In this document: positions 1,712-61,120 of the stretch, one piece after another
How the letters are laid out: every line of letters begins with the position of its first letter
Numbering within the stretch: the stretch's first letter is position 1
DNA from: Candidatus Marinacidobacterales bacterium
Lineage (GTDB): Bacteria; Acidobacteriota; Vicinamibacteria; Marinacidobacterales; SMYC01
Assembly (NCBI GenBank): GCA_965237955.1
Contig: OZ250169.1
Span: 8,000,001 to 8,064,000, forward strand
DNA length: 64,000 bases
Direction: 5' to 3'
Notes under the pieces: model-generated
The model's database searches: none
Told to the model about the DNA's origin: nothing
The model's input: only the letters and a program-made list of their open reading frames with translations
Program-made: the position numbers and the translations under genes

Positions 1712-1848
1712 CGTCCTGTGCCAAAACTCGGCCCTTTTGAAATAGGCCATAAATCAGCAACTTAGTGTCTGTGTTTGCGACCGGGCCAAGGGCCGTGGGC
1801 TTTACAATCATCTTGGGCGGGGGCGGGTCGTCACCATGCAGATGACCA
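1712..1848 (+). mobile_element. Orphan type-A left-end variant
   Basis: Starts CGTCCTGTGCCAAAACTCGGCCC; matches the rc of ~60985-61120; truncated by a second A end. Confidence 0.85.
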
Positions 1849-2219
1849 CGTCCTGTGCCAAAACTCGGCCCTTTTGAAATAGACCACAAATCAGCGGCTT
1901 AGACGCCCTTGGAATCCGCGCAGAATCGAGGGTATTTCGTGCTGCCGGGCTGTCTTCCGAGCGACAGGCCCACCGGGGGTACGCACGGCTGGCTCAAATC
2001 AGCTGCGGGGCGAGCTACGGGCAGTGAATTTCGCACCCGGAAGTTGCGGACCTAGCTTCTCGCGGGGAACAACGCGTTCTTTCTCGAGCACGTTATTGCG
2101 TCGGTGGCCCGGCAGCGACAGAGTGCAGAACCTCCACCGAGGCGAACACGAGTTCGCAGGACCTCAACTCCCATGGCTGTCTGCCCGTCAATTCGCGATC
2201 TTCTTTTTTGCGGATCACA
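1849..2219. mobile_element. Non-coding hybrid segment bounded by a type-A right end and a type-B end
   Basis: 1849-2044 matches 51183-51339 and rc 7238-7354; ends TTTTTTGCGGATCACA (B end). Confidence 0.65.
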
Positions 2220-2320
2220 GCGGTACAATGAGCCCACCCACCCCCGCTTGCGGGTGTGGGTTGGCCGAGCCGCCGGGTCTGGGGCGATGTACGGGGTGAA
2301 GTCAAGGTTAATGCTCAACT

Positions 2321-2654
2321 ATGAAGACAGGACGCTTTCGCTTAGCGCTGAGTAAACTGCAACCCTCCGATTGGGACCAGTTCGAGCACCTCGCCTCGAT
2401 CTATCTTGCGTCGGAGTTCCCGGGCCTTCGAACCCTTGCAACCCCGTCGGGAGACTCTGGTCGTGACGGAACGCTCTTCGCACCAAAAGGCGATGCCGTT
2501 GTGTTTCAATACTCGATATCGCAGGACTGGCGGCAGAAGATCCGACGCACAGTAAAGCGTCTAAACGAGGAGTTCCCGGAAACGGCGCGTGTCCTGGTGT
2601 ACGTCTCGAATTGCCGAATTGGTGCTGATGCGGACGAGTTCAAGCAGGAGTTAC
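2321..2654 (+). pseudogene. N-terminal fragment of restriction endonuclease-like (Mrr/PD-(D/E)xK) protein
   Basis: WDQFEHLAS...SGDSGRDG...FQYS pattern; frame runs into unrelated sequence near 2655. Confidence 0.55.
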
Positions 2655-2739
2655 ACGTACACATCACCAACAGCAAACAGCGCAAGCACCCTTTAATGTA
2701 AAGGGTGGGAACGTTCGATAGTGCAAACAGGAGATTCTG

Positions 2740-3942: not shown

Positions 3943-3974
3943 AGGAGCGGGCCGTGCGGCAGCAGAAAAGAGGC

Positions 3975-4010
3975 TGTGCTCCGCAAAAAAGTCGATCCGG
4001 CGTTGATTGC
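3975..4010 (+). mobile_element. 36-bp type-B left-end remnant
   Basis: TGTGCTCCGCAAAAAAGTCGATCCGGCGTTGATTGC, same as the ends at 9126 and rc 21788. Confidence 0.85.
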
Positions 4011-4633
4011 TCGACGAGGACGGACAGGTAGACTTCAAGGGCAAGGCTAAGGCGTTCGAGCGCGCGTACGGCTTCCTCGCCTCAATCCTGCCATACACGC
4101 ACGCCGAGTGGGAGAAGCTCTCGATCTTCCTGAACTTCCTCGTGCCGAAGCTTCCCGCGCCTGTGGAAGAGGATCTGTCCAAAGGCATCCTTGAGTCCAT
4201 CGATATGGACAGCTACCGGGTCGAGAAGAAGGCGGCGATACATGTCCAACTGGCGGACGAGGATGCTGAGATCAAGCCGGTTCCGACTACCGGCGGCGGC
4301 CACAGACCGGAAGCCGAACTCGACCGGCTCTCGAACATCCTCAAGAGCTTCAACGACCAGTTCGGTAACATCCCCTGGACCGACGGCGACCGCATCCACC
4401 GACTCATTACGGAGGAAATTCCGAACCACGTGGCGGCCGACCGGGCCTACCAGAACGCCAAGCAGAACTCCGACAAGCAGAACGCGCGGATCGAGCACGA
4501 CAAGGCGCTCCGGCGGGTGATGACGGCGCTGCTGCAGGACGACACGGAGTTGTTCAAGCAGTTCAGCGACAACGAGTCGTTCCGGCGGTGGCTGACGGAC
4601 ACGATCTTCGCGATCACCTACAAGGCCGCGTAG
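4011..4633 (+). pseudogene. hsdR: C-terminal fragment of type I restriction subunit R
   Basis: DEDGQVDFKGKAKAF...LSNILKSFNDQFG...ELFKQFSDNESFRRWL typical of HsdR C-termini; no N-terminus. Confidence 0.8.
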
Positions 4634-4745
4634 GAGGTGCGGGGGCTCGGGCTCCCGAGCTGGCTGACGATGGAGGGTGCGCGGACCCTCTCAAGCATTG
4701 CCGGACCCTGATTGAGGCCGAATCCGAGGCAAGTAAGGACACTAA

Positions 4746-5864: not shown

Positions 5865-5996
5865 CGTCCTGTGCCAAAACTCGGCCCTTTTGAAATAGCC
5901 CATAAATCAACAGCTTAGAGTCTGTGTTTTGCGACCGGGTCAAGGGCCGTGGGCTTCACAATCGTCTGGTCCGAGGGTGTTATCTTCGAAGCCATC

Positions 5997-7064
5997 ATGA
6001 CGTACCACGTACAATTCTTACTGCTCGTTCTGGCTGGCTGGGTCAACCGCCAGCAGCAGGATGTGATTGACTACCTGCGAGAGGAGAACCGTGTGCTCCG
6101 GGGCGGGCTTCGGGGCAAGCGTCTCAGGCTCTCTGACGACGACCGGCGCAGGCTCGCCGTCAAGGCTCAGGCTTTGGGCCGCGAGGTGCTGGCCGAGATT
6201 GCCTCCGTTGCCACACCCGCTACGCTACTGCGCTGGTACCGCTACCTCATCGCAGCCAAGTACGATGGCAGCAAGAACCGGAGTCCAGGCCGACCTCCGA
6301 CGGCGAAGGACATCCGTGAGCTCATGATACGCGTGGCGCGGGAGAACCCGGCGTGGGGCTATACGCGCCTACAGGGCGCACTCAAGAACCTCGGACATGA
6401 ACTCGGACGCAACACCATCAAGAGGGTCCTCGCTGAGCACGGTATCGCGCCTGCCCCGGAGCGGGGCAAGAGCATGTCGTGGAGCAACTTCATCAAAGCT
6501 CATGGGGGCGCTATCGCTGCGACAGACCTGTTCACCGTCGAGGTGGTGAACCCGTTCGGGCTCGTCCGCTACCATGTCCTGTTTGTCATCGATATCGTCA
6601 CTCGCTGCGTGTGCATCGGTGGGATAACTTCGGACCCCAACGGAGAGTGGATGAAGCAGGTGGCAAGAAACCTCACGGACATGTGGGATGGTTTTCTCCT
6701 TGGCAAGCGATACCTCATCCACGACCGGGACCCGCTATTCACCGAGGCGGTACGTGGACTCTTGAGAGATTCAGGCGTGAAGCCCCTGCGCCTTCCCGCC
6801 AATAGTCCGAATCTGAACGCATACGCGGAAAGATTCATTCTCTCCATACGTCGAGAGTGTCTCAACCGTTTCGTACCTCTCAGTGAGGGACACCTGCGGA
6901 CAGCGGTAACCGAATATGTCGTGCACTATCACACCGAACGGAACCACCAAGGCATCGGCAACGAGCTCATCACACCTCTGCCTGCAAGCGTGAAGGACGC
7001 TGGCCCCGTCGTGTCGCGAGAGCGACTTGGAGGCATTCTCAATTACTACTACCGTGCCGCATAG
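5997..7064 (+). CDS. Type-A integrase-core DDE transposase
   Basis: HTH region ([10 protein letters not shown]), TDLF / HDRD / NAYAERF catalytic triad, [18 protein letters not shown]. Confidence 0.9.
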
Positions 7065-7145
7065 ATTGTCGTCGGCGACGGTCGCCTGTGCCTTCTATTT
7101 ATTCATCCGCGCGCCCCGAACTTGATTGGTCTCCGGTCTGCTGGG

Positions 7146-7237
7146 TGTGCTCCGCAAAAAGTCTATCCGGCGATGATTGCGCGTTTTAGGCCTACTATGG
7201 TCGGCTGCTTTTAGCCGATCTTTTTTTGCGGATCACA
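7146..7237 (+). mobile_element. ~92-bp type-B MITE
   Basis: TGTGCTCCGCAAAAA...TTTTTGCGGATCACA; homologous to 9126-9219 and 50447-50540. Confidence 0.85.
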
Positions 7238-7459
7238 ACAGGTCGGAAGACAGCCCTGCGGCGCGAAATACCCTCGATTCTGAGCGGATTCCAAGGGCGT
7301 CTAAGCTGTTGATTTGTGGTCTATTTCAAAAGGGCCGAGTTTTGACACAGGACGGGATCGACCTCAGCCACGAGCTACTCGACGGGAGCTCCGTCGAGCG
7401 CGAGGCAGTATTAATGAGCAACTACACCGCGCACTTGGACTACTACATGACCGCGACCC

Positions 7460-8366
7460 CGTCCTGTGCCAAAACTCGGCCCTCTTGAAATAGCCGATAA
7501 ATCAGCAGCTTAGCGTCTGTGTTTTGCGATGGTGCCAAGGGCCGTGGCCTTTACAATCGTCTGGCCCGAGGGTGTTCTCTTCGGATCCATCATGACGTAC
7601 CATGTGCAATTCCTACTGTTGGTCAGGCAGCCGTTGTTCGATCGGGCAGCCCTGCCGCTCACACAGAGCCACACGGGTCACGATGGCGACTTTCGCGAGG
7701 CTATTCGACTGGAAGGAAGCCCTTATCGTGGTCAAGCCCGATACGCTCGTTCTGTGGCACAGGAAAGGGTTTCGGCTGTTCTGGCGTTGGAAGTCTCGGC
7801 CAAAAGGACGTCCAACGCTGCCAGAGGAGCTGAAAAACTAATCGCTGAAATGGCGATCGCGAACATCACGTGGGGCGAAGAGAGGATCGCCCAGGAGCTG
7901 CTCGTCAAGCTTGGCGTCCGCGTCTCGCCGCGCACCGTTCGGAAGTACATACCCATTCGAGATGATGGCAGCCCGGACCGGCGCAATGCGTCGCATCGCT
8001 GGGCGACATTCGTGCGGAATCACGCAAAAGCGGTCGTCGCTGCGTATTTTTTTAACGTAGTCACCGTCAGCTTTCGCGTGCTTTAGGTCTTCGTCATCAT
8101 GGAAATCGGCACCCGCAAGATGCTTCACTTCAACGTGACGGCGCATCCGACCGCGGAGTGGACGCTGCAACAGTTCCGGGAGGCGATTGGGTGCGAGCAC
8201 GACTATCGATTCGTCATCGTGGACCGCGATGACAAGTTCTCAGCAGACCTCCGCCGCTCCGTTCGGGGGATGGGTGTTCGGCCGTTGAGGACGCCGCGCA
8301 GAGCACCGCAGGCAAATGCCTATTGTGAGAGACTCATCGGCATCACACGCCGGGAGTGCTTGGATC
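7460..8366 (+). pseudogene. Chimeric element: A left end and first codons fused to a degraded type-B transposase
   Basis: [11 protein letters not shown], then B-type LFDWKEALIVVKPDTL...WGEERIA...ANAYCERLIG with frameshifts and a stop. Confidence 0.8.
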
Positions 8367-9125: not shown

Positions 9126-9219
9126 TGTGCTCCGCAAAAAATCGATCCGGCGTTGATTGCGCGTTCTAGACCTGCTATGTTCGGCTGCTTCTGGCCAATC
9201 TTCTTTTTTGCGGAGCACA
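9126..9219 (+). mobile_element. ~94-bp type-B MITE
   Basis: TIR TGTGCTCCGCAAAAAA / TTTTTTGCGGAGCACA. Confidence 0.88.
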
Positions 9220-9880: not shown

Positions 9881-9931
9881 GGCGGTCGGGGCTCTAAATT
9901 CATTTGGATCAATTAAATGGAAGGGACAGCT

Positions 9932-9949
9932 GAGTTTTGGCACAGGACG
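9932..9949 (-). mobile_element. 18-bp type-A end
   Basis: rc CGTCCTGTGCCAAAACTC; abuts truncated tnpA. Confidence 0.75.
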
Positions 9950-13650: not shown

Positions 13651-13651
13651 C

Positions 13652-20400: not shown

Positions 20401-21788
20401 TGTCGTCCGCAAAAAAGAAGATCGCAACTCGCTGCGACAGAACTGGGAAGGCGATGCTCGTGAAATCGGTCTCGAGGCGTCGTTGATATCCTGAACTGGC
20501 TTCCTCCCCAGGACGAGAAAGACAAACGTCCAGCGCGAACCGAGCGCTCCTCTGCGCGCAGAGAATGCTTCAGTCAAGCGGCGTGGGCCAACCGGTAATC
20601 GTGATGGAGACCGCCAAGAACGGGCCTTGAGACGATTCGCTTTCCGCTCGGAATCTGGTGACGATAGGGAGCAGGATCGACATGAAGAGCGCTCGCCGGC
20701 TCGGGAACATTGGGTCCGAGAGACGAATGCGGCCTCGCGCGATTGTAGTAGTCACGCCATTCACACAACAGTCGACGCAGATGCTTCTCCGACAGCGGGA
20801 TAAGGAAGTCTAAACATTCTCGGCGGGTGGTGCCGATCAATCTCTCGCAATAACAATTCGCTTGCGGCGCGAATGGAGGTGTCCTCAACACCCTGACGCC
20901 CATCGCTCGCACGGACTTCCGTAGATCTTCGGAGAACTTGGTATCCCGGTAGACGATCACGAAGCGATAATCGTGCTCACACGGTATCGCCTCTCGGAAC
21001 TGCTGCAAGGTCCACTCCGCGCTCGGATGCGTGGTCACGTTCACGTGAGTCATCTTGCGCGTACCGACTTCCATCACGACGAGGACGTAGAGGAATTGGA
21101 ACCGAGCCGTGACGACCGTGAGGAAGTCGGTGGCGATGATTGCCTTCGCGTGATTGCGAACGAATGTGGACCAGCATTGCGATGAATGGCTTGCGTCTCG
21201 GTCGCTGTCATCTCGACTCGGCATGTACTTTCCCACCGTGCGCGGGGACACTCGGACCCCGAGCTTGACGAGGAGCTCATGAGCGATTCTCTCTTCGCCC
21301 CAGCTGACTTTCGCGATCGCCATCTCGACGATCAGCTTCTTGAGCTCTTCTGGCACGGGTGGGCGTCCTTTGTGCCGAGATTTCCACCGCCAAAACAGAC
21401 GAAATCCTTTCCGGTGCCAGCGGACGAGCGTGTCGGGCTTCACGACGACTAGGGCATTCTTCCAGTCGAACAGCCGAGCCAGCGCCGCCATCGTGAACCG
21501 TGTCACGTTGTCGGTATGGTGGGGCGTCTGCTCACGCTCGACAAAAAAGGTGCGCTGCTTACGGAGAAAGAGATTCTCGGCGGCGAGGGCACCCTGCGAA
21601 CGGACAAGATTCCGAGCGAACGCGAGGGCGTTGACGAAAGCGGGCACAATATTCGAGAGCAGACGCAAGACTGCACCTTTCCACGGTTACAATGACGTCG
21701 GATCACGTCATCCGTTCGCCACGAAACGGCCAATCCTGGCAGGTCTAAACTGCGGAATCAACGACGGATCGACTTTTTGCGGAGCACA
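20401..21788 (-). mobile_element. Type-B integrase-core IS element
   Basis: IRs TGTCGTCCGCAAAAAAG / rc TGTGCTCCGCAAAAAG; no TSD. Confidence 0.82.
20574..21668 (-). CDS. Type-B integrase-core transposase; second catalytic Asp region altered (IVYRD)
   Basis: AAENLFLRKQ, WGEERIAHEL, TDFL, CERLIG, YNRARPH, VLGGLHHDY. Confidence 0.85.
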   Translation of the reverse strand: MRLLSNIVPAFVNALAFARNLVRSQGALAAENLFLRKQRTFFVEREQTPHHTDNVTRFTMAALARLFDWKNALVVVKPDTLVRWHRKGFRLFWRWKSRHKGRPPVPEELKKLIVEMAIAKVSWGEERIAHELLVKLGVRVSPRTVGKYMPSRDDSDRDASHSSQCWSTFVRNHAKAIIATDFLTVVTARFQFLYVLVVMEVGTRKMTHVNVTTHPSAEWTLQQFREAIPCEHDYRFVIVYRDTKFSEDLRKSVRAMGVRVLRTPPFAPQANCYCERLIGTTRRECLDFLIPLSEKHLRRLLCEWRDYYNRARPHSSLGPNVPEPASALHVDPAPYRHQIPSGKRIVSRPVLGGLHHDYRLAHAA

Positions 21789-21886
21789 GGTCCGGAAGGA
21801 TCCCTGTAAGTGACGCAACCCGGGGGTACCTCCAGGTCGTCCGATGACTCCAACGTCGCTCCTGAGCCAATCTCGAGCGTCTCGTT

Positions 21887-22971
21887 GCCTTGGTGCACAA
21901 CTCGCGATCTCGGTCCACAATTGTCCTTTACTCACGGATTCGAGGTTCCCCATGAGCATTTTCAAACGCACTCAGCGGAAGTATGTGAAGAAGGCCTATC
22001 GCGTGAGGAATTGGCGTGAATATGAGGCGGGTCTACGCAACCGTGGGAGCCTGACCGTCTGGATCTCGCTCACCGCCGGCAAGCTTGTGAACTGGGACGC
22101 GCCCCGGCCGAGGAGGAGGAAACCGGGCCGTCAACGCAAGTACTCGAACCACGCCATCGAGACGGCTGTCACCCTGGGCATGGTGTTTCATCTGTCATCT
22201 AGGCAGAGCGAGGGATTGCTGCGATCGTTGTTCGCTCTGATGAAGCTAGACAATGATGTGCCCGATCACACCACGATCTCGAGGCGCAAGGCGAAGCTGG
22301 GTAAGGTCCCCTTCTACCAAGACAAGCAGAAGACGCCGTTGCACATCTTGATCGACAGCAGCGGTCTCGCTGTCCACGCCGGCCAGCTGCGCAGAGCACC
22401 AAAGAGCAGGGACTATCGCAAGCTCCATCTGTGTGTCGACGAGCAGAGTGGCGAAGTCGTCGCCGGCGAGCTGACGAGCAAAAGAGCCCGCGATTCATCG
22501 CGGGTTGCATCGCTTGTCGGACAGATCGACAGTCCCATCTCATCGGCCAGAGCTGACACCGCATACGACGCCGGCGGCGTCTATGAGGCGATCGAGAATC
22601 ACAGCGCTCATTGCTCGCCGAGGGTGCTGATACCGCCGCGCAAGGGCGCCCAGCTCGCATCGGGGCCGGCGAGCAGCCGACAGCGCAATCGCAACATTGC
22701 AGCACAAGCTCGGCTCGGCAAACGAAAGTGGCACACAGAATCGGGCTACAGCAAACGGAGCAAAGTCGAGACAACGTTCCATCGCTACAAGGCTATCGTG
22801 GGCTCAGCGATGCGAGCGAGAGGGTTGGCGGCACAGAGAGTCGAGGCAAGGATCGGGTGCAAGATTCTCAACACCATGACGGCGCTCGGGATGCCTGATA
22901 GCGAGATGATCGGATGATGGGAGTCGGGGCCAAGCGAGCTCTCGGCCTCTATCGGAGTTGTGCACCAAGGC
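21887..22971 (+). mobile_element. IS5-family element (IS903-like group)
   Basis: Perfect IR GCCTTGGTGCACAACTC at both ends; no TSD found. Confidence 0.9.
21952..22917 (+). CDS. IS5-family transposase
   Basis: YRVRNWREYEAGLRNRGSLTVW, PDHTTISRR, IDSSG, ADTAYD, YSKRSKVET. Confidence 0.92.
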   Translation: MSIFKRTQRKYVKKAYRVRNWREYEAGLRNRGSLTVWISLTAGKLVNWDAPRPRRRKPGRQRKYSNHAIETAVTLGMVFHLSSRQSEGLLRSLFALMKLDNDVPDHTTISRRKAKLGKVPFYQDKQKTPLHILIDSSGLAVHAGQLRRAPKSRDYRKLHLCVDEQSGEVVAGELTSKRARDSSRVASLVGQIDSPISSARADTAYDAGGVYEAIENHSAHCSPRVLIPPRKGAQLASGPASSRQRNRNIAAQARLGKRKWHTESGYSKRSKVETTFHRYKAIVGSAMRARGLAAQRVEARIGCKILNTMTALGMPDSEMIG

Positions 22972-22973
22972 AA

Positions 22974-38617: not shown

Positions 38618-40246
38618 GGAGGTGCTCGAGCGGTGTAAAAATTGGAAGACTATCCGGATGATTCGCGGTGTTTACTAATTGGACATTTTTCGATGATTGA
38701 CAACGTCAGCTCGCCCTTGGGGGATGTCCCGGCCGCTGGTCGGGTAGCGGCGGCACCTGTGAATACTCTTAGGCAGCAAACTCATCGCTGTCAAGAGATT
38801 TCTGTTTGCTTCTAAGCGCGTGAACGAGAGCGCCCATATGGCGATAGCCTTTGATACGCCGGAACTCTTTCTGCGCGGTGACGACGCCAAGAGCGGTCCA
38901 TCGGCGAACCATGGAAGGACTCTTCCAACGCTTGACGTTTCTCGATACTCTGCGAATGGTTCCGTTGAGATTCTCAATGGCGTTCGTCGTGGCAAGAGAC
39001 TGGCGAAGTAAGGCGGGCAGCGCGAGCTTCACGACCGTGAGTGTCTCTTCCATCCCTTCACGAAGGCTTCCGGCAGCTTCGTCGTAGCCGTTTCGCTCGA
39101 GCCACGACACCAATACCTGAAGTCGCTTGCGCGCCTTGTCGGCACTCTTGCACTTGTAGGCTTCCTTCATCGTCTGGAGCACGTAGGCGTGACGAGACTC
39201 TGGGAAGGTACGAGCGAAGATTTCGGAGTTTATGGATCTGGCACCTTTGGATGACCGCGAGGTCCCCAAAAACGTCGACGAGTGCCTTGCGGATGCCTTT
39301 GCCTCCGTCCACTACGCAGAGAATCGACGCATCGACGCGCAAGCCTCGCTCGAGAAGGTCCTGCAACATCGCGGTGCACACCCGAGAGTTCTCCGTCGAG
39401 CCCAGCCATATACCCAGGGGCACCTTCGTTCCATCTATTGTGATACCGAGAGTTACGACGACGGTCTGTCCGGCCACCTCAAGGCCATCCAGCATCAGTG
39501 CCGCAAGCTCGAACTCCTCTAGCCGCCGAGACAGGTATTCCTCGAGCTTCTTAGTCGTCTGGCTCACGAGGTGACGGCTGGCGGCACTCTTACTCGTGCC
39601 ACGAGACTTCAACTTGGCCGCGGGTTTGTCCAGACTCGATTCGTAATTTCGGGTCGATACCCCCATCAAGATCTGATTCAACACTCGCTCTGGAAGCGGG
39701 TCTTCTTCGCGGAAGGCTTCGAAGTGTGGAAGCGACGCCTCCTCGCCCGACTTCGAGCGAACTCGAGGTCGCGACACTTGGATGCGACGACCACCGAAGC
39801 TCAGCTCTCCGTTCGTGCTCCCCCAGTGGTTATGAGTTCGCTCCTTCTCGTGCTTGCCCTTGAGCCCCGCGATCTCCTCGGCGTCCTCTCTGAGCAGTAG
39901 GTGCAGAGCTGTCAGTCCTTGCTCGTACACCCATTCCGTCAGATCCGCCTTCGTGGCCGCGATCCCAGCTATCATCGGTAGCAGTATCTGACCGACTTGG
40001 CCAACTACCTTGCCCGTAGGCGAGTGCGTTTGCTTTCTTACTGGCTTCTTTGATTTCCTAGTCCCCTGGATCTTTGATTACTATACAAAGTTAGGCTTTT
40101 CGCCAGCCCATAAGATTCATAAGATTCATGCACTTAGAAGGGTTTCGGCAAGCTCTGTTTTATCTAGTTTGTTCTGATACAGGGGACTAGGCATTGGTGG
40201 CTCCTTGTCCCCCTCTGGAGACGGTTTATTGGCAGACCTATTCTTA
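38618..40246 (-). mobile_element. IS256-family element (type gamma), inactivated
   Basis: LMLDG, VVDGGKGI, QRCQIHK, TTNAIE; frameshift near 39200; MITE after codon 2; left end lost to ISAzo13; right end approximate. Confidence 0.8.
40058..40190 (+). mobile_element. 133-bp CTAG MITE, copy 3
   Basis: Same termini; removal restores ATG CCT AGG AAA... of the IS256 transposase. Confidence 0.93.
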
Positions 40247-41950
40247 GGGCCGCCGACAAAATAACTGTCTTGTTTTGAGCACACTCTTCCTGTTTCAGGT
40301 CGTGATCGCGATGTCGTCTGGCATCACGAGAGCCTGGCAAGCTCCCTAGAAACGGAACATTTGTAGATCTTCAGCAACCAGCGCGTGTTTGACAAACGGT
40401 CCTCATTTTAGGGAGGATTACGCCTATCAAGGAGCACTTCTCCTATTATGAGACCTACGAGCTATCAGTCTGAAGATCTCGACCGCCTGTTGAGGAAGCA
40501 CAAAATAGCTACCCTCGATGATTTGAAGGCAGTGTTGGGTACCGATGTGGACTCGACCGTCTTCCGAAAGCTCAATGAGTTGGCGTATCGGACAAGCTAC
40601 TCCCACCGTGGTAGCTACTACACGTTGGACGAGATCGCCCAGTTCGATCGAAAAGGTCTTTGGTCGTTGCGCTCAGTGTGGTTCTCGAAGTACGGGACGT
40701 TGCTTGCGACGGTAAAAGCGTTGGTCGCGGCCTGTGAGGCAGGCTACTACGTCGACGAGCTCGAGGACGTGGTGCAGGTTGACGTCAAGGCTCCTCTGTT
40801 GAAACTGGTCCGAGAGAAAAGATTGGCGCGCGAGCAGGTGTTCGGCCGATATCTGTATCTGGCCACCGATGTGAGCACGCGCAAGCAACAGCTCTCGGCC
40901 CGCCAGGTACATGAGGCGTCACCTTCCACGTTGGGCTGGGTCGGGGGAGTCCGCGTGCTCCCCGTGGAGTTGAAGGCTGCGATCGTTCTTTTCTACAGCC
41001 TGCTCGATGAAAAGCAGCGCCGTCTCTACGCGGGAGTCGAGGCCATGAAGCTCGGTCACGGTGGCGACCAACAGATTGCCGAACTGCTCGGGATGGATCC
41101 GAGCACGGTAGCCAGAGGTCGTAGGGAATTGCTAATGAGAGATGTTGAGCTCGACGGAGTTCGGCGAAAGGGTGGCGGACGGCGCGCCGTGCAAAAAAAA
41201 CGCCAGAAGTCATCGCCAAGATCGAAGAACTCATGAAGCACGACACCGCGGGCGATCCGATGACGGGAGTGAAATGGACGCGGCGGACCACCGACAAGAT
41301 TGCTTGCGAGCTAAGAAGCCTCGGTGTGAACGTCAGCAGCAAAACCGTCGGTCGACTGCTCAAACAGCTCGGCTTCTCGTTGCGGGTGAACCACAAGAAG
41401 CTGTGCGGTGCCACGTCCGAAGATCGCGATACCCAATTCGCGTGTATCGCCGAACTGCGCGAGCGTTTTGCCGCAGCTGGTCATCCCATCATCAGCGTAG
41501 ACACGAAGAAACGGGAGCTGGTGGGATTATTCAAAAACGGCGGGCAGGCCTGGAACCGCGAGCCGACTCTCGTCAAAGACCATGACTTCCGTTCCGAATC
41601 GAACGGCATCGCAATCCCCTACGGCGTCTACGATCTGCTCGCGAACCGCGGGACAGTGTTCATTGGTACCTCGTACAACACCCCGGACTTCGCCGTGAAT
41701 GCCATCGAGAAGTGGTGGCGAACGGAAGGACGGCGACGCTATCCTGCAGCCCGTGACCTCGCGATATTGGCAGACGCCGGGGGCAGCAATGGCTATCGGT
41801 GTCGGGGTTGGAAGCACGGGCTTCAAACGCGGATTTGCAATCGCCACGACATCGCTATCACCATAGCCCACTATCCGTCCGGTACATCCAAGTGGAATCC
41901 AGTGGAGCACCGTCTGTTCAGCGAGATCAGCAAGAACTGGGCGGGCAGGC
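40247..41950 (+). mobile_element. ISAzo13-family element, 3' end removed by IS21; ORFs 40448-41236 and ~41200-41950
   Basis: IR GGGCCGCCGACAAAATAA; LDEKQRRLYAG; A8 slippery site at 41193-41200. Confidence 0.9.
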
Positions 41951-42364: not shown

Positions 42365-43123
42365 TCATGCATCGGCGTTGTCAAATGCCTTTGGCGCAGC
42401 CTTGGTCTTTCTCAGAGAAGCTCCTTTGAGAGTGATGCGGTGCGCGCTGTGGAGAATGCGATCGCAGATAGCGTCTGCCTGGTTTGGGTCGCCAATCGCT
42501 TCGTGCCACTGCTTGAGCGGAATCTGGGTCGCGATGAGTGTGGAGCCACGCTCGGCGCGGTCTTCGATGACCTCCATTAGATCCCGTCTCTCCGATTCTT
42601 TCAGCGGGTGAAGCAGCCAATCATCGATAGCCAGTAAGTCCAGCTTGGCGAGTTTCGTCAAAAGCCGGGCGTAGGAACCATCACCACGAGCGACCGCGAG
42701 CTCGTGGAGCAAGCGCGGTGCTCGCACGTAGCATCCGGTGAAGCCGCGACGACAGGCCCGCTCCACGAAGGCGCAAGCCAAGAACGATTTGCCAATCCCC
42801 GTCGGGCCGGTGATGAGCAGGTTATGGCGCTCACCGACAAAGCGGCAGTTGCCCAGGCTCAAGATCTGTTCGCGGTTTAAGCCTCGAGGCGCTTGGAAGT
42901 TCACGTTCTCCAAACATGCCGGATAGCGGAGCTTTGCCGCTCGCAGTCGTCGAGAAAGCTTACGCTGTTCGCGGGCGGTCCACTCGGCATCGACCAGGAG
43001 TCCCACACGTTCCTCGAAGCTCAGCTCCTTGTATTCGCTCGAGCTCAACTGGGTTTCGAACGCGGACACCAAGCCGAACAACTTCATGGCGTTCATCTTT
43101 TCTATCGTTTCGGGTGTCAGCAT
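42365..43123 (-). CDS. istB: IS21 helper ATPase
   Basis: Walker A GPTGIGKS, LLAIDDW, ADAICDRI; ATG overlaps the istA stop. Confidence 0.95.
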   Translation of the reverse strand: MLTPETIEKMNAMKLFGLVSAFETQLSSSEYKELSFEERVGLLVDAEWTAREQRKLSRRLRAAKLRYPACLENVNFQAPRGLNREQILSLGNCRFVGERHNLLITGPTGIGKSFLACAFVERACRRGFTGCYVRAPRLLHELAVARGDGSYARLLTKLAKLDLLAIDDWLLHPLKESERRDLMEVIEDRAERGSTLIATQIPLKQWHEAIGDPNQADAICDRILHSAHRITLKGASLRKTKAAPKAFDNADA

Positions 43124-45171: not shown

Positions 45172-45324
45172 CGTCCTGTGCCAAAACTCGGCCCTTTTGA
45201 AATAGACCACAAATCAGCAGCTTAGACGCCCTTGGATGATGGTGGCGCTCTACATAATATAGATGAACTCGACGATGGCCCGTCGCGCGGGTCTTAGAGT
45301 GCGTTTGTATTCTTGGACACGACG
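45172..45324. mobile_element. 153-bp hybrid mini-element (A right end + C end)
   Basis: CGTCCTGTGCCAAAA...TTCTTGGACACGACG. Confidence 0.65.
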
Positions 45325-48027: not shown

Positions 48028-48344
48028 CGTCCTGTGCCAAAACTCGGCCCTTTTGAAAAACCATGTCTGTAATTTAATGCACCGTAAAGTCTTAGTGTCA
48101 TTTTACCAACACTTAATGGCGGAAGCACCCATGAGGTCTGTGTGAGCGGCAGGGCTGCCCGATCGAACAACGGCTGCCTGACCAACAGTAGGAATTGCAC
48201 ATGGTACGTCATGATGGATCCGAAGATAACACCCTCGGGCCAGACGATTGTAAAGCCCACGGCCCTTGGCACCATCGCAAAACACAGACGCTAAGCTGCT
48301 GATTTATAGGCTATTTCAAGAGGGCCGAGTTTTGGCACAGGACG
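48028..48344. mobile_element. 317-bp non-autonomous segment with two type-A ends
   Basis: Inward-facing CGTCCTGTGCCAAAACTCGGCCC at both termini; 48137-48344 matches rc 7460-7665. Confidence 0.75.
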
Positions 48345-50446: not shown

Positions 50447-50540
50447 TGTGATCCGCAAAAAAGAAAACCGGCCAGAAGCAGCCGACCATGGCGGGTCTAA
50501 AACGCGCAATCAACACTGGATAGACTTTTTGCGGAGCACA
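50447..50540 (-). mobile_element. ~94-bp type-B MITE
   Basis: rc homologue of 9126-9219. Confidence 0.88.
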
Positions 50541-51182: not shown

Positions 51183-51339
51183 CGTCCTGTGCCAAAACTC
51201 GGCCCATTTGAAATAGACCACAAATCAGCAGCTTAGACGCTCTTGGAATCCGCGCAGAATCGAGGGTATTTCGCGCCGCAGGGCTGGCTCAAATCGGCTG
51301 CGGGGCGAGCTACGGGCAGTGAACTGCGCACCCGGAAGT
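51183..51339 (+). mobile_element. Orphan type-A right end
   Basis: Matches 1849-2044 with an internal deletion. Confidence 0.8.
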
Positions 51340-51386
51340 CTCTGATTAGACTGGACTTTACCGGGCAGAAGAGCGAACGTTCGGTG

Positions 51387-51818
51387 ATGCCGCAGGATAC
51401 AGGGGTTGGGCGGAACGTCGTTCTGGACGGTTTGGACTTCGCCAGCTTGCGGCGGGTCTGGGAGCAGACCTTTGGGGCAGCTCCGCCAAGCTCGCTCTCG
51501 CGTATCTTCATGCGCCGCGTTCTCTTGCACGAACGCCAGTGCCGGACCCATGGCGGGCTTTCGGCCGCAACCCGGCGCGCTCTGGCCGCTATGGCGAACG
51601 AGACACCAGGCAACGCCGCTCCCGCAGGGTCCGTTTCTGCCGGCACCCATATCGTCCGCGAGTGGAATGGCCGGACCTACCAGGTCGAGGTAGTCGACAA
51701 CGGCTATCGGTTCGATGGCAAAACCTATCCGTCCCTCACCGCCATCACAAAGCGAATCACCGGCACCCACTGGTCAGGACCACGCTTTTTCGGTCTCACG
51801 CCCAAGCGCAAGGCCTAA
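51387..51818 (+). CDS. DUF2924 family protein
   Basis: LRRVW...GGLS...GTHIVREWNG...SLTAITKRITGTHWSGPRFFGL. Confidence 0.9.
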   Translation: MPQDTGVGRNVVLDGLDFASLRRVWEQTFGAAPPSSLSRIFMRRVLLHERQCRTHGGLSAATRRALAAMANETPGNAAPAGSVSAGTHIVREWNGRTYQVEVVDNGYRFDGKTYPSLTAITKRITGTHWSGPRFFGLTPKRKA

Positions 51819-51819
51819 C

Positions 51820-53481
51820 ATGAAGAAGATCCGCTGTGCCATCTATACGCGAAAGAGTGCGGAAGAGGGTCTCGAACAGGAGTTCAACTCCCTCGATGCG
51901 CAGCGAGAAGCCTGCGCCGCGTATGTCGCGAGCCAGAAAGCGGAGGGCTGGGTGCTGCTGCCAACTGTCTACGAGGACGCGGGGCTCTCGGGAGGAACCC
52001 TGGAGCGCCCGGGCCTGCAGCGCTTGCTCGCCGACATCGACGCAGGTCTCGTCGACCAGATTGTGGTCTACAAGGTCGACCGGCTGACCCGTTCCCTCTC
52101 CGACTTTGCAAAGCTCGTCGAGCGGCTCGAGGCGGCCGGCGCGGTTTTCGTCTCGGTGACTCAGTCCTTCAACACCGCGACCAGCATGGGACGACTGACG
52201 CTGCATATGCTGCTGTCCTTCGCACAATTCGAACGCGAGGTCACGGCCGAGCGGATCCGCGATAAGGTCGCTGCCTCCAAGCGCAAGGGACTATGGATGG
52301 GCGGCCGCGTACCGCTCGGCTATGAGAAGGACGGGCGCACGCTGCGCATCAACGAGGCTGAGGCCGAAACGGTCCGGACGCTCTATGCGCTGTACCGAAA
52401 GCACGAAACGCTCCGGCAGGTGAAGGCCGAGGCGGACCGTCTGAGACTGCGTACCAAGCAACGCTTCACCGCGGATGGAACCCGAACGGGCGGGCTGCCG
52501 TTCCGTCGCGGACACCTCCACTGCCTGCTGACCAATCCTCTCTACGCCGGCCGCATCCGGCACCAGAGGCGTGTCTACGAGGGCCAGCATCCATCGATCA
52601 TTGCTCCGGAGCTCTGGGACGCGGTCCAAACGCAGCTGCAGGCAGGGGCTGCCAAACCAAGGAGACGCACGACGAAGGGCCGTGCCGCCCGTTCCCCACT
52701 GGCAGGCAAGCTCTTCGACGAGACCGGGGACCGGCTGACGCCGAGCCACACCAAAAAGAAAAACGGGCAACGGCTCCGCTACTACGTCTCCCGGCGCCTC
52801 ATCCAGCACAGTGGCCAAAAGGACCTCTCCGGCTGGCGACTGCCCGCCCCGATGCTGGAACAGACCGTCGTGCATCTCATCCGACAGCATGTGGATGCCA
52901 CGACCTTCTCGGCCTCGTTGATCCACACTCCGACGATGCAAGAGCTCGCCTCGGTGCGTCGCTTTTTAGACGGGCTGTGTTCCGGTAGTAACAATGATAG
53001 TGCCTCGGCAGCCCCCCTGCTCCGTCTTATCCGGCGGGTCGACATCAGCCCCGGCTCTGTGTCCATCCTGCTCGACCGCGATGCGTTCGCTGCTTGCCTC
53101 TCTATGGGACCCGAACGCATTCGCGACGATGCACTCCGCATCCTCGCACCGTTCCGCTTGCGTCGACGCGGCGTCGAGACCAAGCTCGTTCTGGGCAACC
53201 CCACGAAATCCGTCGACCGCACACTCCTGCGCAATATCAGAAACGCCCTCTCCTGGCTCGACCGAATCAAAGCAGGCAAAACCTATGAGCAGATTGCCAC
53301 CGAACACGCCATCCCAACGGACCGCGTGCGCAAGGCAATCCGTTATGCCTTCCTGGCTCCCGACATCGTCCGCGCCATTGTCGAAGGCCGCCAGCCCGTT
53401 GGGCTGACCTCGAGCTACCTCTTGCATCATCCGCTTCCCGACGATTGGGAGAAACAGCGAGTGCTCGTCAAAACGCTGTGA
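51820..53481 (+). CDS. Large serine recombinase
   Basis: RCAIYTRKS, FNSLDAQRE, VYKVDRLTRS, FAQFERE, GLWMGG...PLGY, C-terminal FLAPDIV. Confidence 0.95.
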   Translation: MKKIRCAIYTRKSAEEGLEQEFNSLDAQREACAAYVASQKAEGWVLLPTVYEDAGLSGGTLERPGLQRLLADIDAGLVDQIVVYKVDRLTRSLSDFAKLVERLEAAGAVFVSVTQSFNTATSMGRLTLHMLLSFAQFEREVTAERIRDKVAASKRKGLWMGGRVPLGYEKDGRTLRINEAEAETVRTLYALYRKHETLRQVKAEADRLRLRTKQRFTADGTRTGGLPFRRGHLHCLLTNPLYAGRIRHQRRVYEGQHPSIIAPELWDAVQTQLQAGAAKPRRRTTKGRAARSPLAGKLFDETGDRLTPSHTKKKNGQRLRYYVSRRLIQHSGQKDLSGWRLPAPMLEQTVVHLIRQHVDATTFSASLIHTPTMQELASVRRFLDGLCSGSNNDSASAAPLLRLIRRVDISPGSVSILLDRDAFAACLSMGPERIRDDALRILAPFRLRRRGVETKLVLGNPTKSVDRTLLRNIRNALSWLDRIKAGKTYEQIATEHAIPTDRVRKAIRYAFLAPDIVRAIVEGRQPVGLTSSYLLHHPLPDDWEKQRVLVKTL

Positions 53482-53517: not shown

Positions 53518-54343
53518 GCAGCAAGCTGCTCTCCGACACTGGCCTCCACCAATCAGCCTCAAACTGGCCCCAATTCCCTGTCATGGTTTCCAGACTCGGA
53601 TAGCTCCTTGTACTGGACCGTCTGCGGAGTCATCTTCGTTTCCTCCGTAAAACTCCGCTGGATGAATTCGAGGTTTGGCCAATTCGAATTCCGCTATTCG
53701 CCTTCTCCTCAGGCGCGATCTAGGCGTTAAGCGTCTTCTCATTGTCTGCGCGATTAAGCGCAAAAACGTCCCGATAAGCCCCAAAATCGCCCCAAACTGC
53801 ACGTTAATGGCCTGTTGTGCTCTGTTTCTGATCGTTTCCAGCCAAGAATCGGAAGCTCCACTCAAGCCTCCCGACTGCGATAGCCGGAAAGATGTTCCCG
53901 TCGACGAATATTCGCTGATGAGACGTAAAGCTTTTTATAACAATGAGTAACGGCCGGCGGTGGCGCCGGAGGGTTCACGACACGACCTTCTTTCAGGCGT
54001 CCGGGAGATTGAAATTGCCGTATAGAAAATCTTACTAAAGCCAATTAAAATCCCGGCTCGAACGACCACCCGTCGATAATGCGTGCGGGGACCAGCACGT
54101 GACGGAGGCCGTTAAATCACTGTAGGGGAAGAGGATGGAACGAAATGGGCAGCATGGTTGAAACCCGAGAGGGCGTAAAACAGCCTTCTCCCAAAACCTG
54201 TGTACGCGTCAAGAAAGTCAAGAAATGCGCGAAACTCGAAACCTCCTAAATCTCCACTTATTTTTCTCTTTGAGGATTTCCGCCAAAAGCTGGACCGCCT
54301 TTTGCCGAGACCGGATAGCTCCAAACTGCACCATCCGCCACCC
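53518..54343 (+). repeat. Copy 2 (uninterrupted) of the recombinase-downstream region
   Basis: Near-identical to 757-1711. Confidence 0.93.
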
Positions 54344-54533
54344 AGTCTGGCCAATTGCGGCCCCGCAGAGACGGGTGGGATTTCCCGCGCGGTTGGCGGG
54401 GTTTTGCAGAGGTAGGTGGCACCAGAGACGCGCTATAAGGGCTGAACAGGCCTCATTTTCGGTATTGGTCTCTAATCTCGATTTTCGAGTGCCACGTTTG
54501 CGCTAAAGGGGAGAACGGGCGCTGACCGGGCCG

Positions 54534-56548: not shown

Positions 56549-56744
56549 TTCTTCCTCCTATTTGTTTCAGATTAAGGTATCAATGGATTGAATTAAACTT
56601 ATTTCATGCTTTTAACAATGTTAAGGATAGGAAATTTCATGGCCCATTGAGAAGCGTGTTCCTCCAATTTCCTCGGCTTGCATGCGGCTCAGCGAGTCTA
56701 TTGAAGCTCGCTGAGGATATCAGGTCGTAGGGATCTTTGAAGCC

Positions 56745-57368: not shown

Positions 57369-57544
57369 TGCGTATTCCGGGGCATCGTGAACGCAGATTC
57401 CAGCCGAAGGTGAACATCCATTCCAAAGCATCGTGAACACGGATTCCAGGCAACGTGAACGCCGGTTCCGGCATCGCGAACGCTCATCGATAGCACGTTT
57501 CAAGGCAACTCTAGGTCGTACCCGGAAGGAGGACGATCTAGGAA

Positions 57545-59101
57545 ATGGCAGCTAAGAGGGTATCGATGAGAAAAATACGAGAGGTTCTAAGGTTAAAGTA
57601 CGAGCTGGGTTTTACTCACCGCATGATCGCAAAGGCACTTCGCGTGGCGGTTGGAACGGTGAGTGAGTACCTGGCCAAGGCGAAGAAGGGTGGTCTGAGC
57701 TGGCCGCTCCCGGAGGAGCTGAGCGACGGGGAGCTGGAGGCAGGGCTGTTTCCGCCGCCGGGCTCGTCTGGCGCACGGCCGGGTCTGGACTATGCCCACA
57801 TCCACGAGGAGCTGAGGCGTCACCGAGAGCTGACGTTGCTGCAGCTGTGGGTGGAGTACGCGGAGAATAAGCCGGGAGCGTACGGCTACAGCCGTTATTG
57901 CGAGCTGTACGGTCAGTGGAAGAAGAAGCTGAACCCGACGATGCGTCAACGGCATCGAGCAGGCGAGAAGACATTCGTCGATTTTTCGGGGAAGAAGCCT
58001 CACATCGTCGATCCGAAAACGGGAGAGCTCGTCGAAATGGAGCTGTTCGTCGGGACGTTGGGCGCGAGCAGTTACACCTACGTCGAAGCGACACTGAACC
58101 AGTCGCTGGAATCGTGGGCGAAGGCCCATAAGGGGATGTCGGATTACTTCGGTGGCAGTACGGAGATCTGGGTTCCGGACAACTTGAAGAGCGGCGTGGA
58201 TTTGGTGGACCGTTACGAGCCAGGGATCAACCGGACGTACGAAGAGCTGGCGACGCATTACGGTGCGGTTGTGGTCCCGGCTCGGGTGTTCAAGCCGAAA
58301 GACAAAGCGAAGGTGGAGTCGGCAGTGCAGGTGGCGCAGCGCTGGATCCTGGCGGTGCTTCGTCATCGCACGTTCTTCAGCCTGGCGGAACTGAACGAAG
58401 CCATCTGGGAGAAGTTAGAGGTCCTGAATGCGCGTCCGATGCAGAAGCTCGGTGTGAGTCGGCGGGAGTTGTACGAAAGGCTAGACCGGCCCGTACTGAA
58501 ACCGCTACCGCAGGAGAGCTACGAGTTATCGACGTGGAAGCGGTGCAGAGTGAACATCGACTACCACGTGGAGGTGGAGAACAACTTGTACAGCGTTCCC
58601 TATCAGCTCATTCACGAGAAAGTCGAGGCACGGGTGACGGCCTCGGTGGTGGAGGTCCTGTTCAAGGGAAAGCGCGTCGCGTCGCATCCCCGCAAGAAAG
58701 GAAAGGGGCACTACTCCACGAACCCGGAGCATATGCCACGTTCGCATCGGGAGCACCTGGAGTGGACGCCGTCGCGGCTGCTCCACTGGGCGGAGCAGTC
58801 AGGTCGCGCCACGGGAAGGCTGGTTGCGGGGATTCTAGAGAGTCGGCCTCACCCGGAGCAGGGATTTCGCTCTTGCCTGGGAGTCATGCGACTAGGCAGC
58901 CGCTGGGGCAGTGAGCGTCTCGAGGCCGCTTGCGCACGAGCGGAAGCTTTGAGCTCTTACAGCTATCGCACGGTGAAAAACATTCTCTCGGCTGGTCTGG
59001 ATCGTGTGGTGCTCGAATCGGACGCCGAAGCGAAACCGCGAGAGGAGCACGAGAACATCCGAGGCGCGGATCACTACGAAGGAGGAGAGTCCCGATGCTG
59101 A
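57545..59101 (+). CDS. istA: IS21 transposase
   Basis: 518 aa, two residues different from 43117-44673. Confidence 0.95.
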   Translation: MAAKRVSMRKIREVLRLKYELGFTHRMIAKALRVAVGTVSEYLAKAKKGGLSWPLPEELSDGELEAGLFPPPGSSGARPGLDYAHIHEELRRHRELTLLQLWVEYAENKPGAYGYSRYCELYGQWKKKLNPTMRQRHRAGEKTFVDFSGKKPHIVDPKTGELVEMELFVGTLGASSYTYVEATLNQSLESWAKAHKGMSDYFGGSTEIWVPDNLKSGVDLVDRYEPGINRTYEELATHYGAVVVPARVFKPKDKAKVESAVQVAQRWILAVLRHRTFFSLAELNEAIWEKLEVLNARPMQKLGVSRRELYERLDRPVLKPLPQESYELSTWKRCRVNIDYHVEVENNLYSVPYQLIHEKVEARVTASVVEVLFKGKRVASHPRKKGKGHYSTNPEHMPRSHREHLEWTPSRLLHWAEQSGRATGRLVAGILESRPHPEQGFRSCLGVMRLGSRWGSERLEAACARAEALSSYSYRTVKNILSAGLDRVVLESDAEAKPREEHENIRGADHYEGGESRC

Positions 59102-59692
59102 CACCCGAAACGATAGAAAAGATGAACGCCATGAAGTTGTTCGGCTTGGTGTCCGCGTTCGAAACCCAGTTGAGCTCGAGCGAATACAAGGAGCTGAGCT
59201 TCGAGGAACGTGTGGGACTCCTGGTCGATGCCGAGTGGACCGCCCGCGAACAGCGTAAGCTTTCTCGACGACTGCGAGCGGCAAAGCTCCGCTATCCGGC
59301 ATGTTTGGAGAACGTGAACTTCCAAGCGCCTCGAGGCTTAAACCGCGAACAGATCTTGAGCCTGGGCAACTGCCGCTTTGTCGGTGAGCGCCATAACCTG
59401 CTCATCACCGGCCCGACGGGGATTGGCAAATCGTTCTTGGCTTGCGCCTTCGTGGAGCGGGCCTGTCGTCGCGGCTTCACCGGATGCTACGTGCGAGCAC
59501 CGCGCTTGCTCCACGAGCTCGCGGTCGCTCGTGGTGATGGTTCCTACGCCCGGCTTTTGACGAAACTCGCCAAGCTGGACTTACTGGCTATCGATGATTG
59601 GCTGCTTCACCCGCTGAAAGAATCGGAGAGACGGGATCTAATGGAGGTCATCGAAGACCGCGCCGAGCGTGGCTCCACACTCATCGCGACCC
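59095..59692 (+). pseudogene. istB: istB, 3'-truncated
   Basis: Identical to the intact copy up to STLIAT. Confidence 0.9.
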
Positions 59693-61120
59693 CGTCCTGT
59701 GCCAAAACTCGGCCCTTTTGAAATAGGCCATAAATCAGCAGCTTAGTGTCTGTGTTTGCGCCGGGGCCAAGGGCCGTAGGCTTTACAATCGTCTGGCCCG
59801 AGGGTGTTATCTTCAGATCCATGATGACGTACCACGTGCAATTCCTACTGCTCGTTCTAGCTGGCTGGGTCAACCGCCAGCAGCAGGATGTGATCGACTA
59901 CCTGCAAGAGGAGAACCGTGTGCTCCGAGCCGGGCTTCGGGGCAAGCGTCTCAGTCTCTCGGACGACGACCGGCGCAGGCTCGCGGTCAAGGCCCAGGCT
60001 TTGGGCCGCGAGGCGCTGGCCCAGATTGCGTCCGTTGCCACACCCGCTACGCTTCTGCGCTGGTACCGCCACCTCATTGCAGCCAAGTACGATGGCAGCA
60101 AGAACCGGAGTCCAGGCCGACCTCCGACGGCGAAGGACATCCGTGAGCTCATTGTGCGCGTGGCGCGGGAGAACCCGACGTGGGGATATACGCGCCTGCG
60201 AGGCGCACTCAAGAACCTAGGACATGAACTCGGACGCAACACTATCAAGAGGATCCTCGCCGAGCACGGTATCGCGCCTGCGCCGGAGCGGGGCAGGAGC
60301 ATGTCGTGGAGCACCTTCATCAAGGCTCATTGGGGCGCCATCGCTGCGACAGACCTGTTCGCCGTCGAGGTTGTGAACCCGTTCGGGCTCGTCCGCTACC
60401 ATGTCCTGTTTGTCATCGATATCGCCACTCGCTGCGTGTGCATCGGTGGGATAACGTCGGACCCCAACGGGGAGTGGATGAAGCAGGTGGCAAGAAACCT
60501 CACTGACATGTGGGATGGTTTCCTCCTTGGCAAGCGATACCTCATCCACGACCGGGACCCGCTATTCACCGAGGCGGTACGTGGGCTGTTGAGAGATTCA
60601 GGCGTGAAGCCCCTGCGCCTTCCAGCCAATAGTCCAAATCTGAACGCATACGCGGAAAGATTCGTTCTCTCCATACGTCGAGAGTGTCTCGACCGCTTCG
60701 TACCTCTCAGTGAGCGACACCTGCGCACAGCGGTAACCGAATACGTAGTGCACTATCACACAGAACGGAACCACCAAGGTCTCGGCAACGAGCTCCTCAC
60801 ACCTCTGCCGGCAAGCGCGAATGACGCTGGCCCCATCGTGTCGCGAGAGCGACTTGGGGGCATTCTCAACTACTACTGCCGTGCCGCGTAGATGGTCGCC
60901 GGCGACGGTAGCCCCTCGGCGGGATCGACCGGCGTAGCGTGGAAACAGCTTCAGGAACACGCTTCGATATTCGCTCTCGACTAGGTGGTCATCTGCATGG
61001 TGACGACCCGCCCGCCCAAGACGATTGTAAAGCCCACGGCCCTTGACCCGGTCGCAAACACAGACACTAAGTTGCTGATTTATGGCCTATTTCAAAAGGG
61101 CCGAGTTTTGGCACAGGACG
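59693..61120 (+). mobile_element. Type-A element bounded by two left-type ends (~100-bp TIRs)
   Basis: 59693-59794 matches rc 61020-61120; flanks GACCC / GGGTC, no TSD. Confidence 0.85.
59821..60891 (+). CDS. Type-A integrase-core DDE transposase
   Basis: Close homologue of 5997-7064, frame intact. Confidence 0.9.

Follow-up and report, generated by a model that had tools for sequence, protein, structure and literature searches.

Polar target junctions without target duplication in an unclassified DDE insertion sequence family from a Marinacidobacterales genome

We analysed a 64,000-bp stretch of DNA (the window), which covers 8.00–8.064 Mb of the single 8.13-Mb contig of a Candidatus Marinacidobacterales genome (G000), and followed an insertion sequence (IS), here termed type A, that has 12 ends within it. 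Both ends of this element join a short polar target motif in the same orientation, no target duplication accompanies them, the other half of the target is lost and one end can be re-joined on its own. The accepted view is that a DDE transposase joins the two ends of its element within a single complex and with a fixed stagger, and duplications are used to define and to find such elements. Type A is a DDE insertion sequence with relationships to IS481 and IS3 but as yet unclassified, and the feature is real and family-wide.

The initial annotation of the window had given coordinates, strands and outside pentamers for the 12 ends, all of which proved exact. It had also described A(-4), Y(-3) and C(-2) as invariant, which holds within the window only; genome-wide, the three positions are conserved in 68%, 87% and 89% of flanks, respectively. 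G000 contains 496 type-A ends with 454 distinct flanks. Read towards the element, the target at both ends is [G]AYCC^[C/A]GT, with G at -5 in 49%, A at -4 in 68%, C or T at -3 in 62% and 25%, C at -2 in 89% and C at -1 in 77%, and with little base preference beyond this pentamer out to -40. The pattern NAYCN is found in 253 of the 454 flanks against a background of 3.3%, and its reverse complement NGRTN in one. With A or T at -2 in only three flanks, hardly any junction departs from the polar rule. Separate logos for left and right flanks gave the same polar motif on both sides (NAYCN in 46/84 left, 35/65 right and 50/76 alternative right ends; NGRTN in 0, 0 and 1), and ends in relatives behaved likewise (86/178 and 0/178). 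The polar, end-by-end choice of target that had been proposed from the window holds genome-wide, in relatives and in Streptomyces. No clear strand bias of the kind expected from lagging-strand targeting was seen by eye in 250-kb bins.

The assignment of the pentamer to the target had relied on five uninterrupted homologues in the window, each of which exists (54343, 60986(-), 41053(-), 61371 and 42526(-)). Empty alleles bear it out: in 153 cases, flank bases -5 to -1 agree with the empty allele in 91–96%, which rules out a flank carried along from the donor. In 148 empty alleles the motif could be followed past the junction, with C (40%) or A (32%) at +1, G (68%) at +2 and T (59%) at +3. Had the two ends attacked in concert, the target would be expected to equal its own mirror image about the stagger, or else forward and reciprocal junctions would be mixed. 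Across staggers from -6 to 15 the type-A target is nowhere mirror-symmetric (its mirror score never rises above -2.8, compared with 3.26 forward), and a mixture fit to the 148 targets limits the share of reciprocal junctions at these staggers to 0.009 or less. In contrast, the mirror score peaks at 9 bp (1.7, compared with 1.69 forward) for a control element that we take, from Pfam or size, to be IS903-like, and at 6 bp for IS21. Inverted motif copies showed no enrichment 5–290 bp outside the ends, at a threshold passed by 69% of true sites.

Three other accounts of the motif were tried and rejected. A palindromic GAC-NNN-GTC target with a 1-bp duplication did not stand up in the analysis of the 148 targets. 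An inner TGTG as the true end, with CGTCC as part of the target, would require empty alleles to contain CGTCC, and these match it at only 33–65% per base; the CGTCC tip, exact in 478 of 515 core matches in G000, is derived from the element. Finally, target positions +1 to +3 resemble CGT and might pair with the tip, but sister elements whose tips are likewise CGT or TGT favour TCT, CCT or GCC at these positions, and target choice is therefore likely to be made by protein and not by pairing.

Duplications of at least 4 bp are absent from all complete copies: 0/21 in G000, 0/25 in relatives, 0/14 distant homologues and 0/6 Streptomyces plasmid records. None of the 21 copies in G000 has a duplication of 3–9 bp, and the longest exact match among 53 inward pairs tested to 5 kb is 3 bp. 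A long duplication that had always been erased was the other option raised initially; a fixed long one is excluded for about 97% of ends, and a long duplication survives at none of 94 inward pairs. An all-against-all comparison of flanks gave 74 overlaps of at least 11 bp, and in no case were the partners the left and right end of a single copy; of the overlaps examined, most involve back-to-back ends or matches in multicopy repeats. The observation that the missing half of the target never reappears at the partner end extends from the window to the genome, to relatives and to Streptomyces. An empty allele is available for 184 of the 496 ends; the other half of these targets is carried by no end at offsets from -23 to +10, and no partner junctions were found at 4–14 bp. 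Among 27 cases of an end inside another reference IS, the remainder of the interrupted IS is missing within 4 kb in 26, and at none of 41 junctions do both ends of one copy lie in the same reference IS. Miniatures of 317 bp follow the same pattern. Pfam analysis of 13 flank frames, of which one gave matches, revealed no gene interrupted by an element. Three candidate pairs from which the size of a first deletion might have been read (offsets -326, +37 and -203) proved to be repeats and not single events.

Control elements in the same genome, compared with CRISPR (clustered regularly interspaced short palindromic repeats) sequences left out, keep their duplications in 39/50 (ISL3), 25/28 (IS256), 9/11 (IS3-like, a label assumed on the same grounds as IS903-like) and 15/30 (IS21) cases. 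Within 15 kb of type-A ends the corresponding counts are 4/5, 3/3, 4/5 and 8/16, with 0/3 for a second IS256 element.

Re-joining at one end, which the initial annotation had offered as one possible inference, is seen directly when Streptomyces plasmids are compared. Six records carry a 1194-bp member at 99.1–100% identity, whose protein (WP_266425385.1) is 35% identical to that of type A. Among their 10 distinct junctions, C is found at -2 in nine and no repeat exceeds 1 bp; C is present at +2 in all seven empty alleles. Strains NBC_00826 and NBC_00257 have the left junction and 50 kb of flank in common while their right junctions differ, and these right ends join sequences that are uninterrupted in two different NBC_01369 plasmids. 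Similarly, NBC_01243 and NBC_00053 have a left junction in common, and the right junction of NBC_01243 lies 6.4 kb further out. The left junction of NBC_01369 is 24.9 kb further out than that of NBC_00826; 19.9 kb of this 24.9-kb interval was searched for and is absent from the NBC_01369 record. Among the matches listed, and repeats aside, the missing halves of the targets were absent from the records that carry the element, a search that covered these records and not the strains' other replicons. The second copy in the NBC_00826 record is the mirror of the first. We also observed that in the 892-kb record NZ_CP108874.1 (loci L122 and L128) the element and its flanks occur twice, at mirror positions that sum to the record length; a plasmid of about 446 kb may have been assembled here as a fold-back.

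Of 40 related genomes, nine, which belong to two families, carry copies at 93–99% identity, and five further genomes have weaker or partial matches. Sister elements within G000 (55–62% and 32–34% identical) likewise lack duplications; the target of family C is polar, and that of the TGT-tipped families E and H probably is too. TGT tips are also found in the Streptomyces members and in a 1346-bp sister. Fourteen homologues at 59–86% identity, in Myxococcota, Gemmatimonadota, Gammaproteobacteria and other Marinacidobacterales, have CGTnn-TGT tips and the motif on both sides, with no repeat longer than 2 bp. They comprise two found separately and 12 clean pairs from automatic calling, in which 7 of 24 loci gave no pair and five of the 17 pairs (L075, L079, L082, L087 and L097) were dropped as mis-called or doubtful. 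In the sister tree, the rows for L079 and L052, and probably those for the 1714-bp and 2089-bp elements, represent wrong frames and were ignored; the type-A clade has support of 82/66 in a tree that contains no curated IS481 sequences. Members on Leptospira plasmids mostly have CC or GC before a TGAG tip. On these plasmids (L149–L154) the element lies just behind a conserved helix-turn-helix (HTH) gene and before variable cassette regions, with stacked right ends, and the second copy in L152 has a right end where its left end should be. More widely, we found 2,090 related protein clusters at E 1e-30 or better, and a translated search of 72,556 plasmids gave 97 records at E 1e-6; among the 60 of these that were listed, none is annotated as IS3 or IS481. 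IS481 is the best NCBIfam match for all 68 homologues scanned. Type A scores 93.9 and 101.4 bits with this model, under half the cut-off of 224, and 76–83 bits with the IS3 model, about half its cut-off of 160.

The type copy has inverted repeats of 102 bp, in which 97 bases are alike between left and right. G000 contains 21 full copies, 17 of them with an intact transposase frame. The catalytic triad is DD35E, with D178 and D244 invariant and E279 present in at least 90% of the 68 homologues. A predicted model of the 356-aa transposase (predicted local distance difference test score 89.8) comprises a long N-terminal helix, an HTH region and an RNase H core; its nearest structures are IstA, TnsB, Mos1 and retroviral integrases, at 12–16% identity in the top ranks, and sequence searches of the PDB gave weak matches only. 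No promoter or terminator match was found in the element. The closest pair of copies in G000 (99.79% identical) has no flank in common, and two pairs of miniatures have one flank in common and not the other.

From comparisons of junctions we infer that each end makes its own transfer, so that movement means deletion or fusion. In the mechanism we propose, the transposase would nick one tip, freeing ...GGACG-3'OH, and the freed tip would be transferred to a single strand at 5'-AC[G/T]^GGRTC-3'. This would use the chemistry with which IS3/IS30 elements begin circle formation, but direct it to an ordinary site in place of the other end, and the branch would then be resolved by host replication and repair. 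Joining in cis would delete adjacent DNA, and joining in trans would swap arms or produce a fusion. Two uncoupled joins would create a new copy, with the element replacing the interval between the two sites; the opposite geometry would produce a long tandem duplication that is soon lost. No concerted second step would occur in the family. We put the probability that uncoupled one-ended single-strand joining is the only mode at roughly 0.55. More tentative, and somewhat short of an even chance, is the stronger proposal that the family has given up concerted integration and moves in inchworm fashion, its ends taking turns to join a single strand at the polar motif, each move deleting, swapping or fusing host DNA.

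Should each move be paid for in flanking DNA, the ends would persist only in dispensable islands and would erode them. Type-A ends fall in 52 of 163 50-kb bins, 2.7 Mb are free of them, and 84–85% of ISL3 and IS256 ends lie outside the type-A bins. In the related genome G025, 25 of 28 ends fall within about 125 kb; the segments 2559–24063 and 6218810–6320193 of its contig C1 form one island across the contig start, which holds these 25 ends. Such clustering would fit a cost in flanking DNA per move, or local action. Contigs from six independent short-read runs show many different flanks at the tips together with uninterrupted targets; contigs of X17 and X20 cease matching at window position 45173 and run on. 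No contig bridging an empty site was found in the six runs, and no end-to-end circle joint among the 8 joints listed or among 15 of 169 listed, in contigs that drop rare forms.

The most serious alternative, although an unlikely one, is ordinary concerted insertion with a duplication (perhaps 20–27 bp as in IS1202, or short) that is always overwritten by polar one-ended deletion. It agrees with uncoupled joining that the observed junctions are polar one-ended joins. Several observations weigh against uncoupled joining as the only mode, and some of them favour overwriting. Duplications are also lost in the IS903-like element (0/78) and in IS6 (0/7), which shows that overwriting can be near total in G000 and that absence alone proves little; it is polarity that sets type A apart. 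The IS903-like element, a 1087-bp member of the IS5 family (window 21886–22972 and 77 more copies) with a symmetric 9-bp target, has no duplication even where type-A ends are absent, and 14 of its 214 ends retain a 9-bp partner elsewhere. The inverted motif is in small excess at 24 bp (15/454 against 4.6 expected), a result that was not repeated in the relatives' 178 ends, and three of eight back-to-back pairs less than 200 bp apart have spacers of 24, 25 and 27 bp, 24 bp being the shortest such spacer in the genome. These spacers could hint at a rare long duplication or at a minimal distance between complexes. Ends 2061123(-) and 3650753(-) of G000 overlap by an exact 20 bp, in inverted arrangement, within what read as the two halves of a related low-copy transposase gene; this pair is the best candidate for a split duplication. 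In addition, frequent adjacent deletions by IS3 and IS150 are reported (PMC11708052, PMC8860574). Further points against uncoupled joining come from other elements: 3-bp matches are present in 4 of the 16 copies of the 1346-bp sister (permutation p 0.08), and some other Streptomyces subfamilies have no CC flanks. Synteny at low-copy elements in same-genus genomes led to an island interior, a synteny break or no match; no first insertion was caught with its pre-insertion allele, and uncoupling of the first step is to that extent conjectural. Against overwriting, reciprocal junctions amount to at most about 1% at staggers from -6 to 15 and at most about 3% at 24 bp, the exceptions at -2 are as rare as given above, and both single-copy plasmid elements (99–100% identity) and low-copy genomes give the same pattern.

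Two-ended replicative (Shapiro-type) transposition would account for the deletions, for fusions at plasmid arm boundaries and for the inverted 20-bp pair, provided that it were nearly always intramolecular, captured its target asymmetrically and lost the reciprocal junction on a circle. Passages of PMC11708052 describe the use of cointegrates by IS6- and IS903-type elements. Since both junctions are retained in replicative inversions and cointegrates, partners would be expected to be common, yet none was found in the ranges searched; moreover the IS903-like control has a symmetric target and type A does not. We regard this model as improbable.

Lower still, and very unlikely in our judgement, stands a model in which a single complex uses both ends on two inverted motif copies, separated by a variable and often long distance; long direct repeats, IS1549/IS1634-like or in a Dup-IS-Dup arrangement, would then collapse, or deletions would remain. 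The occurrence of the same motif at both ends would follow directly, and PMC11708052 reports an IS481 copy central in a 60-kb duplication that has no short repeat. The lack of long duplications at inward pairs, of enrichment of the inverted motif and of junctions with both ends in one reference IS all argue against it, and it leaves the movement of one end alone unexplained. An origin of the pattern in the host or in the assembly is scarcely credible, whether through recombination between copies, through insertion at pre-existing breaks, as PMC11708052 proposes, or through mis-joining of the hundreds of near-identical repeats. Recombination or mis-assembly would shift partner halves and not remove them and cannot produce a polar motif, while same-zone controls keep duplications, the miniatures behave alike, the six short-read runs show many flanks and the same pattern recurs in other phyla.

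Within the window, four of the 12 ends bound complete elements, two bound a miniature and the remaining six belong to fragments, of which the classified ones measure 65–219 bp and that at 9949 is a bare tip (Table 1).

Table 1. Type-A copies, empty targets and sister genes (window coordinates), with close back-to-back pairs in G000 coordinates
Feature	Position	Strand	Remarks
Complete 1428-bp element, type copy	59693..61120	+	Terminal inverted repeats 59693-59794, 61019-61120; tips 5'-CGTCCTGTG
356-aa transposase of type copy	59821..60891	+	Pfam rve_3, HTH_32, HTH_21; D178 (60352), D244 (60550), E279 (60655)
Second complete copy, 1490 bp	5865..7354	+	First 1222 bp 93% identical; right end differs; transposase 5997-7064
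Non-autonomous 317-bp miniature, type-A ends	48028..48344	+	15 full-length genome copies at 96-100%
Right-end fragment, ~138 bp	1712..1848	+	Cut off by next end at 1849
Alternative right-end fragment, ~112 bp	1849..1960	+	Joined inside right end of another copy
Miniature-type left-end fragment	7460..7678	+	Back to back with end 7354, 105-bp spacer between
Bare 18-bp tip	9932..9949	-	Followed by end of sister family at 9928
Right-end fragment, 65 bp	45172..45236	+	Truncates gene fragment that continues in related strains
Right-end fragment, 107 bp	51183..51289	+	
Empty target of 1712 junction	54339..54346	+	CACCC^AGT
Empty target of 59693 junction, in istB of IS21	42523..42530	-	GACCC^AGA; 44 uninterrupted copies
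Empty target of 5865 junction, in ISAzo13	41050..41057	-	GACCG^AGC
Empty target of 1849 junction, within element's own right end	60983..60990	-	GACCA^CCT
Empty target of 48028 junction	61367..61374	+	GACCC^CGA
Sister transposase, family C, 55% identical	61427..62620	-	Ends 61266(+), 62742(-); own polar target
More distant sister transposase, 34% identical	20574..21668	-	TGT-tipped ends near: 20340(+), 21788(-)
Back-to-back pairs with 24/25/27-bp spacers	G000 326432/326457, 7838746/7838772, 7854559/7854587		Spacers are pieces of multicopy sequence

Other repeats were observed alongside these features. Ends of a family B, TGTG[A/C]TCCGCAAAAA, occur at 2219, 3975, 7146-7237, 9126-9219 and 50447-50540 as 94-bp miniatures without duplication, and their tips look like the ends of the Leptospira elements. 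A DUF2924 gene and a large serine recombinase gene (51243-53481) form a multicopy unit, and type-A ends in turn often cut it. A 133-bp miniature with CTAG tips (1554-1686, 40060-40190 and 62546-62677; 76 copies) has one end in common with a 1189-bp IS630-like element. Outside the window, G000 contains three kinds of CRISPR-like 36–37-bp repeats in long arrays (about 130, 59 and 39 copies).

A widespread family without duplications would be missed or mislabelled by current tools. It would supply a mechanism for the duplication-less deletions and duplications that recent work could not explain (PMC11708052), and it offers a direct cause for the erosion of islands in element-rich genomes and for the mosaic structure of linear Streptomyces plasmids. 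If the proposal is true, one-ended joining would give DDE elements a third way to move, next to cut-and-paste and copy-in or copy-out. It would then act as an engine dedicated to eroding genomes and exchanging the arms of linear plasmids, and it would be the property of a large unnamed family, annotated only as 'integrase core domain-containing protein', in Acidobacteriota, Myxococcota, Actinomycetota, Pseudomonadota and Spirochaetota. Since cultured Streptomyces strains carry an intact 1194-bp member, the question is testable at the bench.

The initial description of type A as the candidate for an undescribed system holds as far as the literature searched, in which we found no account of the family or of any DDE element with a polar motif at both ends; ISfinder and TnPedia lay outside that search and may already name members. 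The part of a Frankia study that was available contains nothing on the family (PMC2770080). Among known systems, IS481 elements are similar in being single-gene DD35E elements of similar size with terminal inverted repeats, and TGT tips are found in the Streptomyces and 1346-bp sisters; their duplications are given as 2–15 bp, mostly 6 (PMC10045372). Type A differs from them in the CGT tips of its clade, in a score below the model cut-off and in the lack of target duplication.

With IS3 and IS30 elements type A has a related catalytic core in common, and IS911 is known for single-end transfer. Passages of PMC9333248 describe the first step of IS30 as a one-ended transfer to the same strand, and insertion next to an end by single-strand transfer in both IS3 and IS30; IS3 also makes adjacent deletions, as PMC8860574 reports. 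However, the one-ended step of IS3 and IS30 targets the other end, and the circle inserts with a 2–5-bp duplication. Type A uses a free polar motif, has one frame and not a frameshift pair, has CGT and not TG..CA tips, makes no duplication and, among the joints listed, has no abutted end-to-end junction. The IS481-related IS1202 group includes a subgroup without duplication (ISEsa1, ISCARN112 and ISRor8), for which no conserved target is reported (PMC10132070), whereas type A has its polar motif. IS1202 elements have transposases of 394–507 aa, repeats of 15–29 bp, TGT tips and 5-, 16- or 27-bp duplications, compared with 356 aa and no duplication in type A; only one of the 68 homologues touches the ISNCY model (E 6e-4).

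Elements of the IS6/IS26 and IS903 groups, which work through cointegrates, resemble type A in that their copies mostly lack duplications and neighbours are eaten, as IS6 and the IS903-like element do in G000; the IS903-like element differs in its symmetric 9-bp target and its surviving partners, and both groups have transposases unlike that of type A. IS91 and IS200/IS605 elements have short polar targets, no duplication and one-ended events, but they use HUH enzymes and have unlike ends, whereas type A has an RNase H/DDE fold, inverted repeats and the motif at both ends. IS1272 is described in PMC5678879 as a DDE element with inverted repeats that makes no duplication and replaces target DNA. 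It targets inverted-repeat structures and makes small replacements, whereas type A targets a linear polar motif and its losses are measured in kilobases.

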